Assembly (NCBI RefSeq): GCF_003334385.1 | Contig: NZ_QOWN01000009.1 | Strand: one strand, 5' to 3' | Source of the DNA: Escherichia coli | Lineage (GTDB): Bacteria; Pseudomonadota; Gammaproteobacteria; Enterobacterales; Enterobacteriaceae | Length of the DNA: 64,000 nucleotides | In this document: one piece after another, positions 44,832-52,241 of the stretch | Layout: the number at the start of each line of letters is the position of its first letter | Numbering within the stretch: the stretch's first letter is position 1 | The notes under the pieces: generated by a model | What the model saw: the letters and a program-made list of their open reading frames with translations, nothing else | Database searches by the model: none | Told to the model about the DNA's origin: nothing | Position numbers and translations under genes: made by a program

Positions 44832-45737
44832 ATGCGTCGAACGTTTATCAAAAAAGAAGGCGTCGTCATCACGACGCTGGCCCGTTATTTGTTGGGTGAA
44901 AAGTGCGGTAATCGATTGAAAACCATAGATGAGCTGGCAAATGAATGCCGTTCATCCGTTGGCCTGACGCAGGCCGCGTTGAAAACGCTGGAATCAAGCG
45001 GAGCGATACGGATTGAACGCCGTGGGCGCAATGGCAGTTATCTGGTCGAGATGGATAACAAAGCATTGCTGACTCATGTGGATATCAACAACGTGGTATG
45101 TGCAATGCCCTTGCCCTATACCCGTTTGTACGAAGGCCTGGCGAGCGGATTGAAAGCCCAGTTTGATGGCATTCCTTTTTACTATGCGCACATGCGTGGC
45201 GCGGATATTCGCGTGGAGTGTCTGCTTAATGGCGTGTATGACATGGCGGTGGTTTCGCGACTAGCGGCGGAAAGTTATCTCACGCAAAAAGGCTTATGCC
45301 TCGCGCTGGAGTTGGGGCCGCACACCTACGTTGGCGAGCACCAGTTGATTTGCCGTAAAGGCGAGTCCGCAAACGTGAAGCGCGTGGGGCTGGATAACCG
45401 TTCGGCGGATCAGAAAATCATGACCGATGTTTTTTTTGGCGGTAGTGATGTGGAACGAGTCGATCTCTCTTATCACGAGAGTTTACAACGCATTGTTAAA
45501 GGCGATGTCGATGCGGTGATCTGGAACGTGGTGGCGGAAAACGAACTGACCATGCTGGGATTAGAGGCGACGCCGCTCACAGACGATCCGCGATTTTTAC
45601 AGGCCACCGAAGCCGTGGTCCTGACGCGAGTCGATGATTACCCAATGCAACAACTGCTGCGTGCCGTTGTAGATAAACACGCCCTGCTCGCCCATCAACA
45701 ACGGGTAGTGAGTGGGGAACAGGAACCGAGTTATTAA
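44832..45737 (+). CDS. yhfZ: Uncharacterised putative transcriptional regulator YhfZ
   Basis: 301-aa ORF recognised as YhfZ; first gene of the yhfZ-yhfS cluster. Confidence 0.8.
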   Translation: MRRTFIKKEGVVITTLARYLLGEKCGNRLKTIDELANECRSSVGLTQAALKTLESSGAIRIERRGRNGSYLVEMDNKALLTHVDINNVVCAMPLPYTRLYEGLASGLKAQFDGIPFYYAHMRGADIRVECLLNGVYDMAVVSRLAAESYLTQKGLCLALELGPHTYVGEHQLICRKGESANVKRVGLDNRSADQKIMTDVFFGGSDVERVDLSYHESLQRIVKGDVDAVIWNVVAENELTMLGLEATPLTDDPRFLQATEAVVLTRVDDYPMQQLLRAVVDKHALLAHQQRVVSGEQEPSY

Positions 45738-45753
45738 ACGAAAGGCATCTGAT

Positions 45754-46116
45754 ATGGAAACCAGACTCAACCTGCTTTGCGAGGCAGGCGTTATTGATAA
45801 GGACATCTGCAAAGGCATGATGCAGGTCGTCAACGTACTGGAAACAGAGTGCCATCTGCCGGTGCGCAGTGAGCAAGGAACGATGGCGATGACACATATG
45901 GCGAGTGCACTGATGCGCAGTCGCCGTGGTGAAGAAATAGAGCCGCTGGATAACGAGTTGCTGGCAGAACTGGCGCAATCCAGCCACTGGCAAGCCGTTG
46001 TGCAATTGCATCAGGTGTTGTTGAAGGAATTCGCACTGGAAGTTAACCCGTGTGAAGAAGGCTATTTGCTGGCCAACCTTTATGGATTATGGATGGCTGC
46101 TAACGAAGAGGTTTGA
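45754..46116 (+). CDS. yhfY: Uncharacterised protein YhfY (PRD-like)
   Basis: 120 aa from METRLNLLCEAGVIDKD; the ORF track is extended 14 codons upstream. Confidence 0.75.
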   Translation: METRLNLLCEAGVIDKDICKGMMQVVNVLETECHLPVRSEQGTMAMTHMASALMRSRRGEEIEPLDNELLAELAQSSHWQAVVQLHQVLLKEFALEVNPCEEGYLLANLYGLWMAANEEV

Positions 46117-46199
46117 AGCTCCCGACAAATCCACGTCGCACAACCTAAATATTCAAAAAAATGAATATTTAATTCAAGGAACAGAAACGAGGCAACAAG

Positions 46200-49828: not shown

Positions 49829-49839
49829 AAGGCACGACT

Positions 49840-51144
49840 ATGGATCTGTATATTCAGATTATCGTGGTGGCGTGCCTGACGGGTATGACATCGCTTCTGG
49901 CGCATCGCTCGGCGGCTGTTTTTCATGACGGCATCCGCCCGATCCTGCCGCAACTGATTGAAGGCTATATGAACCGTCGCGAGGCGGGGAGTATCGCTTT
50001 TGGTCTGAGCATTGGTTTTGTGGCCTCGGTGGGGATCTCTTTTACCCTGAAAACCGGGCTGCTCAACGCATGGTTACTCTTTCTTCCTACCGATATCCTC
50101 GGCGTCCTGGCGATAAACAGCCTGATGGCGTTTGGTCTTGGCGCTATCTGGGGCGTGTTGATCCTTACTTGCCTGTTGCCAGTAAACCAGCTGCTGACCG
50201 CGCTGCCGGTGGATGTATTAGGTAGCCTGGGGGAATTAAGCTCGCCGGTGGTTTCAGCTTTTGCACTGTTCCCGCTGGTGGCGATTTTCTACCAGTTTGG
50301 CTGGAAGCAAAGTCTGATCGCCGCCGTGGTGGTACTGATGACCCGTGTGGTAGTCGTGCGCTATTTCCCACATCTTAACCCTGAATCCATCGAAATCTTT
50401 ATTGGCATGGTGATGCTGCTGGGGATCGCGATAACTCACGACCTGCGTCATCGTGATGAAAATGACATTGATGCCAGCGGGCTTTCGGTGTTTGAAGAAC
50501 GCACGTCACGGATTATCAAAAACTTACCCTATATCGCCATCGTGGGAGCATTGATTGCCGCCGTTGCCAGCATGAAGATTTTTGCTGGCAGTGAAGTGTC
50601 GATCTTCACACTGGAGAAAGCATATTCCGCAGGCGTAACGCCGGAACAATCGCAAACGCTGATTAATCAGGCGGCTCTGGCAGAATTTATGCGCGGACTG
50701 GGGTTTGTGCCGTTGATTGCCACCACCGCGTTAGCAACGGGTGTGTATGCAGTTGCGGGCTTTACCTTTGTTTATGCGGTGGGCTATCTCTCGCCGAATC
50801 CGATGGTTGCAGCGGTATTAGGCGCAGTGGTTATTTCGGCGGAAGTCTTGCTGCTTCGTTCGATCGGCAAATGGCTGGGACGCTACCCGTCGGTGCGTAA
50901 TGCGTCGGATAACATCCGTAACGCCATGAATATGCTGATGGAAGTGGCGCTGCTGGTCGGTTCGATTTTCGCAGCAATTAAGATGGCGGGTTATACCGGA
51001 TTCTCTATCGCGGTTGCCATTTACTTCCTCAACGAATCCCTGGGCCGTCCGGTACAGAAAATGGCGGCACCGGTCGTGGCAGTAATGATCACCGGTATTC
51101 TGCTGAATGTTCTTTACTGGCTTGGCCTGTTCGTTCCGGCTTAA
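49840..51144 (+). CDS. yhfT: Uncharacterised inner-membrane transporter-like protein YhfT
   Basis: 434-aa polytopic hydrophobic ORF. Confidence 0.85.
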   Translation: MDLYIQIIVVACLTGMTSLLAHRSAAVFHDGIRPILPQLIEGYMNRREAGSIAFGLSIGFVASVGISFTLKTGLLNAWLLFLPTDILGVLAINSLMAFGLGAIWGVLILTCLLPVNQLLTALPVDVLGSLGELSSPVVSAFALFPLVAIFYQFGWKQSLIAAVVVLMTRVVVVRYFPHLNPESIEIFIGMVMLLGIAITHDLRHRDENDIDASGLSVFEERTSRIIKNLPYIAIVGALIAAVASMKIFAGSEVSIFTLEKAYSAGVTPEQSQTLINQAALAEFMRGLGFVPLIATTALATGVYAVAGFTFVYAVGYLSPNPMVAAVLGAVVISAEVLLLRSIGKWLGRYPSVRNASDNIRNAMNMLMEVALLVGSIFAAIKMAGYTGFSIAVAIYFLNESLGRPVQKMAAPVVAVMITGILLNVLYWLGLFVPA

Positions 51145-51155
51145 GGAAGGCACCT

Positions 51156-52241
51156 ATGAAGACGTTTCCTCTGCAAAGCCTGACGATTATTGAGGCGCAG
51201 CAAAAGCAGTTTGCGCTGGTGGATAGCATTTGTCGCCATTTCCCCGGCAGCGAGTTTCTTACTGGCGGTGATTTAGGCTTAACGCCAGGACTGAATCAAC
51301 CGCGCGTTACCCAGCGTGTGGAACAGGTGCTGGCTGATGCATTTCACGCACAGGCTGCGGCGCTGGTGCAGGGCGCGGGGACTGGCGCGATTCGCGCCGG
51401 GCTGGCGGCTTTGCTCAAACCGGGGCAGCGTCTTCTGGTGCATGACGCGCCTGTTTACCCGACGACACGGGTTATTATTGAGCAGATGGGGCTGACGCTT
51501 ATTACTGTTGATTTCAATGACCTGTCGGCACTGAAGCAGGTCGTCGACGAGCAACAACCGGATGCGGCGCTGGTGCAGCATACGCGCCAGCAGCCGCAGG
51601 ACAGCTACGTGCTGGCAGATGTGCTGGCAACGTTGCGCGCGGCAGGTGTTCCAGCGTTAACCGATGACAACTATGCGGTGATGAAGGTGGCTCGAATCGG
51701 CTGTGAATGCGGCGCGAATGTCTCGACATTTTCCTGCTTCAAGCTATTTGGGCCAGAGGGTGTTGGTGCAGTGGTCGGCGATGCTGATGTTATCAACCGT
51801 ATTCGCGCCACGCTTTACTCCGGCGGTAGCCAGATCCAGGGCGCACAGGCGCTGGAAGTATTGCGTGGTCTGGTGTTTGCGCCAGTGATGCACGCGGTGC
51901 AGGCAGGGGTATCTGAACGGTTGCTGGCTTTGCTTAACGGTGGTGCGGTGCCGGAAGTGAAAAGCGCGGTGATTGCTAATGCGCAGTCGAAGGTGTTGAT
52001 TGTCGAGTTTCATCAGCCGATTGCCGCCAGAGTGCTGGAAGAGGCGCAAAAGCGCGGTGCCTTGCCTTACCCGGTGGGTGCAGAGTCGAAATATGAAATC
52101 CCGCCGCTCTTTTATCGCCTTTCCGGAACGTTTCGCCAGGCGAATCCACAATCAGAACATTGTGCGATTCGCATTAACCCGAATCGCAGCGGTGAAGAGA
52201 CGGTGCTGCGGATTTTGCGTGAGAGTATTGCCAGTATTTAA
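51156..52241 (+). CDS. yhfS: Uncharacterised PLP-dependent transferase-like protein YhfS
   Basis: 361-aa ORF recognised as YhfS; last gene of the cluster. Confidence 0.85.
   Translation: MKTFPLQSLTIIEAQQKQFALVDSICRHFPGSEFLTGGDLGLTPGLNQPRVTQRVEQVLADAFHAQAAALVQGAGTGAIRAGLAALLKPGQRLLVHDAPVYPTTRVIIEQMGLTLITVDFNDLSALKQVVDEQQPDAALVQHTRQQPQDSYVLADVLATLRAAGVPALTDDNYAVMKVARIGCECGANVSTFSCFKLFGPEGVGAVVGDADVINRIRATLYSGGSQIQGAQALEVLRGLVFAPVMHAVQAGVSERLLALLNGGAVPEVKSAVIANAQSKVLIVEFHQPIAARVLEEAQKRGALPYPVGAESKYEIPPLFYRLSGTFRQANPQSEHCAIRINPNRSGEETVLRILRESIASI

Follow-up and report, generated by a model that had tools for sequence, protein, structure and literature searches.

The closest described counterpart of the gene cluster considered here is the yhf locus of Escherichia coli K-12, one of the larger functionally unassigned gene blocks of this species. 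Four of its eight products have been crystallised (YhfZ as 2OZZ, YhfX as 4KBX, Php as 1BF6 and 4LEF, YhfS as 4J8L) under labels that read uncharacterised or give a mere 'homology protein' name, and none has a known physiological role. We analysed this cluster in a window of 64,000 nucleotides of the E. coli chromosome (assembly GCF_003334385.1, contig NZ_QOWN01000009.1), where eight plus-strand genes, yhfZ to yhfS, lie at 44832-52241 between trpS and frlR. The locus is the canonical yhfZY / yhfXW-php-yhfUTS of E. coli, already catalogued and with no function assigned to it. Open-access mentions of its genes are incidental and come from operon tables, a hit for yhfZ in a Keio screen and a treatment of attenuators. 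As an earlier note on this stretch had stated, the substrate is undefined: the full text of 7.7 million open-access PubMed Central (PMC) papers and of bioRxiv gave no functional or pathway assignment for the cluster.

Two further systems offer points of comparison. The dgaABCDEF genes of Salmonella reportedly encode a D-glucosaminate phosphotransferase system (PTS), the D-glucosaminate-6-phosphate ammonia-lyase DgaE and the 2-keto-3-deoxy-6-phosphogluconate (KDPG) aldolase DgaF. Clusters of the EF_0829/AHA_3910 type combine a PRD protein of family TIGR03582 with novel membrane proteins, an amidohydrolase, a SelA-like pyridoxal 5′-phosphate (PLP) enzyme and an aldolase. Regarding the yhf cluster, on balance and with modest confidence we read it as an inducible catabolic operon for a phosphorylated, amine-bearing substrate, independent of the neighbouring fructoselysine (frl) genes, because it unites a repressor, a PRD sensor, a permease with its partner, a hydrolase, a phosphomutase and one or two PLP enzymes. 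The general idea of the earlier note, uptake and catabolism of a modified amino acid or amino sugar, is supported.

Loci carrying the cluster were found by a search with YhfT as the marker, using an alignment of 12 sequences (a 64-sequence version was too diverse), and the locus-level comparisons cover 85 loci, numbered L001 to L085. The YhfT family is small, with 305 representative clusters in 1.84 billion proteins, and the marker was present in 424 of about 100,000 species genomes. The module is spread over three phyla, in Enterobacterales and Vibrionaceae, in Sebaldella (Fusobacteriota) and in Clostridia/Bacilli (Bacillota). Its genes are co-directional in 85 of the 85 loci; yhfU and yhfT are always adjacent, yhfX and yhfW nearly always. 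Four gene orders were seen: Z-Y-X-W-php-U-T-S in Enterobacteriaceae, Z-Y-php-U-T-X-W in Vibrionaceae and others, Z-Y-X-php-U-T with no W in several Yersinia, and Z-(Y)-U-T-php-(Y)-(S)-X-W in Bacillota. Across phyla the identity is 40-66 % for YhfX, 46-78 % for YhfS and 41-80 % for YhfU. Many Enterobacteriaceae, Sebaldella and several Bacillota have the accessory gene yhfS, which is absent in Vibrionaceae, Yersinia and others. We read the yhf cluster as a horizontally mobile module that is complete in itself (Z, Y, php, U, T, X and W, with or without S).

The genes that flank the module differ among taxa and are unrelated housekeeping genes apart from nagB, ptsI and eda/kdgK. A NagB-type glucosamine 6-phosphate (GlcN-6-P) deaminase gene lies directly 3′ of the module in Thalassobacillus (L077) and Melghirimyces (L079), despite their differing X/W order. 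The PTS Enzyme I gene ptsI shares 14 nt with the end of yhfW in a metagenome-assembled genome (MAG) of Clostridiales UBA4039 (L074), and genes for Eda, 2-keto-3-deoxygluconate (KDG) kinase and a second pfkB kinase stand just upstream, on the same strand, in a Clostridia MAG (L083).

The identities proposed earlier for all eight products are upheld by profile matches (NCBIfam and Pfam) and by structure matches. Intact YhfX aligns with PDB 4KBX from end to end (E 4.5e-263) and is a PLP barrel of fold type III with the catalytic Lys; K61 is invariant. Pfam divides it into Ala_racemase_N (residues 33-264, E 6.6e-22) and a C-domain of a separate family, YhfX-like_C. It has no racemase-type C-domain and no equivalog score in NCBIfam (Orr, 28 bits against a cutoff of 480), and its profile matches to alanine racemase (8e-5), D-threonine aldolase (8e-4) and YggS are marginal. 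YhfS matches PDB 4J8L over its full length (E 2e-235) and the Pfam families YhfS-like_C, Aminotran_1_2 and Cys_Met_Meta_PP (9e-7). It is a PLP enzyme of fold type I, with the SxxK Lys and the pyridine-N Asp (K196 and D170, both invariant), and matches the profiles of cystathionine gamma-synthase, methionine gamma-lyase and C-S lyases at E about 1e-10, reaching no NCBIfam equivalog.

YhfW scores 741.9 bits against NCBIfam NF009049, whose name, 'phosphopentomutase', is putative. The protein is related to phosphopentomutase and to cofactor-independent phosphoglycerate mutase. Aligned to the Bacillus cereus phosphopentomutase 3M8W, it retains the motifs DSxGxG, GxDTxxGH (with Thr84), ADHGNDP and HTRE, so that the catalytic core is kept (Asp10, the Thr84 nucleophile and the Asp/His ligands of the metal, Mn), while the cap domain has diverged. 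It stays far below the DeoB equivalog (TIGR01696, 145.8 bits against a cutoff of 341), and its N-terminal/cap half scores 31 bits against phosphopentomutase. Php has the amidohydrolase fold, with full-length matches to PDB 4LEF and 1BF6 (E about 1e-197) and significant similarity to SsoPox, PTE, Dr0930 and the 'phosphotriesterase family protein' 3PNZ (1.3e-33). Its nearest named NCBIfam family is the phospho-furanose lactonase, and it falls far below the cutoffs of the characterised NCBIfam families (102.4 against 630 bits for that lactonase, 100.5 against 500 for organophosphate hydrolase, OPH). The E. coli protein is said to hydrolyse only phosphorylated glyceryl acetates or esters and none of the lactones tested.

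YhfU has the RpiB fold and resembles RpiB far more than Enzyme IIB (EIIB) in structure; its sequence similarity to RpiB is not significant (E 0.45, hhalign probability <1 %) and no NCBIfam RpiB model is reached. An invariant glycine-rich loop, G-x-C52-x-[TS]-G-x-G-x-A, sits in weak alignments at the Cys-x-Thr motif that we take to be catalytic in RpiB. On inspection of the alignment, this Cys-x-Thr is the only part kept of what we presume to be the RpiB catalytic set: no invariant or near-invariant N-terminal Asp-His pair was seen, and the protein ends at residue 117. For its neighbour YhfT a confident predicted model gave no match to any solved transporter fold. The halves of YhfT are weakly homologous (residues 9-124 against 230-350, hhalign E 1.4e-4, probability 52 %), which suggests an origin by internal duplication. 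A PTS EIIB/EIIC pair was considered for YhfU and YhfT and was rejected by fold searches and hhalign, since YhfT lacks an EIIC-type membrane fold and YhfU lacks the EIIB fold with its phosphorylatable Cys in the first beta-alpha loop.

YhfZ reaches the full-length family model NF041241 (YhfZ_full) of NCBIfam with 373.6 bits against a cutoff of 260, and its C-domain (residues 74-301) aligns with PDB 2OZZ, deposited as 'hypothetical protein yhfZ' (E 2e-146). Where a locus reaches the upstream end of the module, yhfZ is nearly always the first gene. YhfY is labelled as a PRD domain protein in RefSeq and its homologues match Pfam PRD; its sole NCBIfam match, to TIGR03582, is weak (28 bits against a cutoff of 69). 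Across three phyla, 16 homologues all carry H48, A52 and R55, and a second PRD His is found in Clostridia only.

The palindrome TTCA-N6-TGAA has four matches in the window against 1.23 expected, and three of the four lie in the promoter regions of yhfZ and yhfX. The box before yhfX extends to the perfect palindrome AAATATTCA-N6-TGAATATTT, and the consensus of the extended form is AT[A/C]TTCA-N6-TGAA[G/T]AT. Of 184 matches in 1.59 Mb of loci, 111 fall within 260 nt upstream of a cluster gene, which is almost always yhfZ and, in the Escherichia/Citrobacter/Klebsiella/Trabulsiella group, also yhfX. This pattern is shared by Enterobacterales, Vibrionaceae and Sebaldella and by two unplaced loci. 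Box 2 is kept 5′ of yhfZ in Enterobacterales, Vibrionaceae, Sebaldella and L004/L005, and box 3 is kept at -47 to -49 in Escherichia, Citrobacter, Klebsiella, Trabulsiella, Pluralibacter and related Enterobacteriaceae loci. We predict from this conservation that the palindrome is the operator of YhfZ and ties together two transcription units. Because it is read in this way, yhfZ would be autoregulated, and the arrangement suggests two co-regulated units, yhfZY and yhfXW-php-yhfUTS. The earlier view of a single operon probably needs refining, as the 83-nt spacer between yhfY and yhfX holds its own copy of the operator. A published operon table agrees with two units: it groups php, yhfS, yhfT, yhfU, yhfW and yhfX, without yhfZ or yhfY. 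About 90 nt 5′ of the yhfZ ATG we also noticed a partial CRP-like site (44741-44756, TGTGAagtgccTCGCC) with 8 of 10 consensus positions. Its TGTGA half is kept in the upstream regions of other Enterobacteriaceae, and the site hints at catabolite control.

Taken together, the inducible catabolic operon would work as follows. YhfZ would bind two boxes at the yhfZ promoter and one at the yhfX promoter and repress both units until an inducer is bound, while YhfY, by analogy with its family, would report the phosphorylation state of PTS/HPr through the phosphorylatable-type His48. Import of the substrate may fall to YhfT acting with YhfU, its obligate neighbour, which is a shortened RpiB-like protein bearing a Cys in a glycine-rich, putatively anion-binding loop. 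All enzymes would then act on a phosphorylated, amine-bearing intermediate: Php would hydrolyse an ester or lactone bond, YhfW would shift the phosphate with its phosphopentomutase-type Thr/Mn core and divergent cap, and YhfX, with or without the putative gamma-family lyase YhfS, would racemise or eliminate at a centre resembling that of an alpha-amino acid. The products may feed central metabolism, and the neighbours in other taxa hint at GlcN-6-P/fructose 6-phosphate or KDG/KDPG as points of entry. A phosphorylated substrate is suggested because the catalytic core of YhfW is conserved and the nearest NCBIfam model of Php is the phospho-furanose lactonase, a PTS link because His48 is invariant and ptsI overlaps yhfW in one locus, and an amino compound because there are two PLP enzymes with a conserved Lys. 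As substrate class we favour a phosphorylated amino sugar, an amino-aldonate (or its lactone) or an aminoacyl-polyol-phosphate ester.

Several points weigh against this reading. No substrate, inducer or phenotype is known for the cluster, and every enzymatic step is deduced from family membership at scores below the equivalog level. The module encodes no kinase and no recognisable Enzyme II, and since the test for a PTS-type transporter also failed, the origin of the phosphate is unexplained. Among the loci examined, the operator pattern is absent from those of Bacillota, and binding by YhfZ is predicted from the conservation of the motif. Moreover, yhfS is missing in many taxa and so is not obligatory, and yhfW, like yhfS, is missing in eight Yersinia species (L038, L040, L042-L045, L048 and L049), so the mutase step either can be dispensed with or is provided in trans. 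None of the neighbours nagB, ptsI and eda/kdgK was seen in more than two loci. Regarding the Yersinia loci, the eight species keep Z-Y-X-php-U-T, and yhfW is retained in Y. nurmii and Ewingella.

More specific proposals can be made about the substrate, and both rank below the broader class of phosphorylated, amine-bearing compounds. The cluster could degrade a phosphorylated 2-amino-2-deoxy-aldonate or its lactone, a glucosaminate-like compound comparable to that of Salmonella dga, with Php as a phospho-lactonase, YhfX/YhfS as an epimerase or ammonia-lyase yielding a 2-keto-3-deoxy sugar acid, and YhfW repositioning the phosphate. The closest named family of Php, the D-threonine aldolase among the profile neighbours of YhfX (an enzyme acting on D-beta-hydroxy-alpha-amino acids), the elimination-type gamma family of YhfS and the Eda, KDG kinase and NagB neighbours (L083, L077 and L079) are all consistent with it. 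Nevertheless we consider it unlikely: Php, at 102 bits against the lactonase cutoff of 630, is reportedly inactive on the lactones tested, the module has no dehydrogenase or kinase, and the neighbour evidence comes from single loci. Still less likely, in our view, is the salvage of glycerol- or ribitol-phosphate that is esterified with an amino acid (e.g. D-alanine) and set free from teichoic acids of Gram-positive bacteria or from aminoacyl-phosphatidylglycerol, where Php would de-esterify, YhfX racemise the D-amino acid, YhfS degrade it and YhfW isomerise the polyol phosphate. Acylated glycerol-3-phosphates are said to be the only reported substrates of Php, alanine racemases are the best profile neighbours of YhfX among solved structures (E 8e-5), YhfW has relatives among both the phosphopentomutases and the cofactor-independent phosphoglycerate mutases, and the hosts come from gut or marine habitats rich in Gram-positive debris. 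The proposal is however purely inferential, the C-domain of YhfX is unlike that of alanine racemase, the nagB/eda neighbours and the RpiB-like YhfU are left unexplained, and Gram-positive hosts carry the module themselves. Regarding transport, it is conceivable, though we remain doubtful, that YhfT and YhfU form an unrecognised type of uptake system, in which the RpiB-derived cytoplasmic Cys subunit YhfU would isomerise or phosphorylate the substrate during or right after transport, and that the module degrades an amino-phospho metabolite available in the gut or the sea whose catabolism has so far been assigned in no organism.

Two further explanations leave the catabolic reading altogether or tie it to frl. 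The cluster might be biosynthetic or detoxifying, making or modifying a small amino-phospho metabolite, or a relic without current function in E. coli. The lack of a known phenotype would fit, as would the sporadic pseudogenes (yhfX in the window, yhfX and yhfT in strain TUM1881, split genes in L053, L060 and L085, a truncated yhfX in L043). We judge it improbable, because a GntR repressor, a PRD sensor, a permease and hydrolase/mutase/PLP enzymes are typical of catabolic operons, the NCBIfam profile scan showed no ligase, synthetase or export signature, and conservation of sequence and synteny over three phyla together with about 93 % retention in E. coli argue for selection. Alternatively, the cluster could extend the adjacent frl system and degrade Amadori or Heyns products (fructosamines), in line with the functional tie implied by the earlier note. 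It physically adjoins frlR-frlABCD in the window, the fold of YhfU is that of a sugar-phosphate isomerase, and the amino-acid part of a fructosamine could be processed by the PLP enzymes. However, co-occurrence fails: frl stands beside the cluster in only three of the 85 loci, all from E. coli (L001, L002 and L009), whereas E. coli L006, Escherichia sp. L007 and the loci from other genera all lack it there. A conserved trio of genes for 457, 268 and 108 aa, which we take to be cysG-nirC-nirD from their sizes and the K-12 gene order, comes directly after yhfS in 24 loci of enterobacteria (L006, L007 and 22 others). Given this distribution, frl is an insertion beside an older conserved trpS-yhf-cysG arrangement and its adjacency incidental. 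The two sets of genes are moreover convergent, with a repetitive extragenic palindromic (REP) element between them and a regulator of their own each, and homologues of frlD/frlB do not travel with the yhf module. We hold an extension of frl to be highly improbable and, judging by the distribution, largely refuted already.

The yhfX gene of the window carries a stop codon, as the earlier note had seen. Position 46554 is T here and C in the 15 best-matching complete genomes, changing Gln119 from CAG to TAG (Q119*); it is the sole difference from these genomes over 44000-53000, and the RefSeq annotation came from a genome with this single difference. The stop falls within the Ala_racemase_N barrel, and because of this the truncated YhfX is non-functional; the other seven genes are intact in translation. 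Among 3792 matching complete E. coli genomes the 61-mer with the T was found in one, that of TUM1881, whose flanks are 1-2 % divergent from the window and place it in a separate lineage. As the T allele was found only in this divergent strain, the lesion of the window is either recent and private or recurrent. NCBI flags both yhfX and yhfT of TUM1881 as pseudogenes, and its double lesion suggests that some lineages have lost the pathway repeatedly or by recombination. In that genome (L002, NZ_CP128979) the same C to T nonsense change lies in yhfX at 7677-8840 and an internal stop in yhfT at 11318-12622. Since Q119* truncates the PLP barrel of YhfX and may, as we infer, be polar on the genes downstream, the pathway is probably inactive in the window strain through what looks like a recent nonsense mutation.

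The positions of the genes and of the other features are given in Table 1. ORF listing, translation and the RefSeq annotation of the near-identical genome agree on the eight co-directional genes that had been described earlier. They are preceded by dam-rpe-gph-trpS on the plus strand and followed by frlR-frlD-frlC-frlB-frlA on the minus strand, convergent with yhfS. The junctions are +16 (Z/Y), +83 (Y/X), -1 (X/W), -4 (W/php), +10 (php/U), +11 (U/T) and +11 nt (T/S). Of the overlaps reported before, those of 1 nt (X/W) and 4 nt (W/php) stand and the one of 8 nt does not, as alternative in-frame starts yield overlaps of 26 or 29 nt only. The lack of internal terminators was borne out: a terminator scan inside the cluster gave 11 matches against 9.7 expected by chance, none of them convincing on the plus strand. 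The BIME (bacterial interspersed mosaic element) upstream of yhfZ was counted among putative attenuators in a paper of 2010. The Rfam scan for riboswitches and sRNAs matched the flanking REP elements only, and a PADLOC scan for anti-phage defence gave no match. No composition signature of horizontal transfer was seen, the GC content of the cluster (0.49-0.57) being unremarkable against its flanks. At least 80 % of the 9-kb region is present in 5059 of 5426 complete E. coli genomes.

Table 1. Coordinates of the yhf genes and associated features in the 64,000-nt window
Feature	Position	Strand or placement	Description
predicted YhfZ operator box 1 (TTCAAATTCCTGAA)	44786-44799		46 nt 5′ of yhfZ ATG; position kept across Enterobacteriaceae
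predicted YhfZ operator box 2 (TTCAATTTACTGAA)	44810-44823		22 nt 5′ of yhfZ ATG
predicted YhfZ operator box 3 (TTCAAAAAAATGAA)	46152-46165		48 nt 5′ of yhfX ATG
yhfZ	44832-45737	+	GntR-type winged helix-turn-helix regulator, YhfZ_C ligand domain
yhfY	45754-46116	+	stand-alone PRD-domain protein
yhfX	46200-47363	+	fold-type III PLP enzyme; pseudogene here, TAG at 46554-46556
yhfW	47363-48589	+	phosphopentomutase-like metalloenzyme of the alkaline-phosphatase superfamily
php	48586-49464	+	phosphotriesterase homology protein, amidohydrolase superfamily
yhfU	49475-49828	+	DUF2620, small RpiB-fold protein, invariant Cys52
yhfT	49840-51144	+	polytopic membrane protein, YhfT family PF10797, presumed permease
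yhfS	51156-52241	+	fold-type I PLP enzyme, Cys/Met-metabolism (gamma) family; accessory module member
trpS intrinsic terminator	44689-44718	+	9-bp GC-rich stem and T-run, from terminator scan; upstream cluster boundary
REP/BIME element	44570-44606	between trpS and yhfZ	Rfam naRNA4 (REP-derived), sub-threshold, 38.2 bits
REP element	52328-52387	between convergent yhfS and frlR	Rfam naRNA4, sub-threshold, 31.7 bits; downstream boundary

Some loci in other taxa show additions or losses. A gene for an EIIC of the lactose/cellobiose PTS family adjoins the module in nine loci, from Vibrionaceae and one unplaced genome (L051 at 4258-7153 on the minus strand, L064 at 17211-19778 on the minus strand and at 20577-21293, and L004, L054, L057, L059, L065, L071 and L072). 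Five or six of them add ORFs of about 106 and 112 aa (putative EIIB/EIIA) and a 296-aa DUF7916 protein that is weakly DeoC/LacD-like. Photobacterium has a second YhfZ paralogue with its own TTCA-N6-TGAA box. The cluster of a Sebaldella MAG has an additional gene between yhfT and yhfS (L061, 11347-12378), which encodes 343 aa and is weakly similar to amidases (33 bits). Only yhfU-yhfT-yhfX-yhfW were detected in Enterovibrio spp. (L060, L067 and L070), with yhfZ, yhfY and php missing; the TTCA-N6-TGAA box is still found upstream of yhfU, and a hybrid histidine kinase gene lies downstream.

What is new in this analysis is the autonomy of the module across phyla, its independence of frl, the predicted operator, and the pairing of an RpiB-like protein with a membrane protein of an unrepresented fold. 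The predicted operator can be used directly for reporter and inducer screens. The cluster is thereby a good target for work on orphan pathways; if its function were resolved, the metabolic map of E. coli would gain a catabolic pathway and perhaps a class of transporter.

Regarding known systems, Php shares its fold with the cog1735 phospho-sugar lactonases (Lmo2620, Bh0225, MS53_0025; NF045706), its closest named family, which require or prefer phosphorylated substrates, as Php reportedly does. It differs from them in scoring far below their cutoff (102 against 630 bits), in genomic context and, reportedly, in not hydrolysing lactones. YhfU, unlike RpiB/LacAB, is about 30 residues shorter and genetically locked to a membrane protein, and it has neither the N-terminal Asp-His pair nor the C-terminal Arg-rich phosphate-binding helix that we take to be typical of RpiB. 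The likeness to Salmonella dga lies in a PTS-linked, phosphorylated amino sugar acid passing through a PLP elimination enzyme to KDPG-type products, which the neighbours in L083 would fit. In contrast to dga, the yhf cluster has no mannose-family Enzyme II, YhfT and YhfU are unrelated to known EIIC and EIIB folds, the PLP enzymes come from other families, and dga has nothing that corresponds to the steps of Php and YhfW. With the EF_0829/AHA_3910 clusters it shares a stand-alone PRD protein heading an operon of uncharacterised membrane proteins, an enzyme of the amidohydrolase superfamily and one or more PLP enzymes, whereas the match of YhfY to their PRD family is weak, the other components are non-homologous and that system is itself uncharacterised. 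The yhf locus of K-12 has the same genes in the same order, and the products align over their full length with those of known structure (E about 1e-146 to 1e-263). From it the window strain is set apart by the Q119* allele of yhfX, which it has in common with a single one of the 3792 matched complete genomes.

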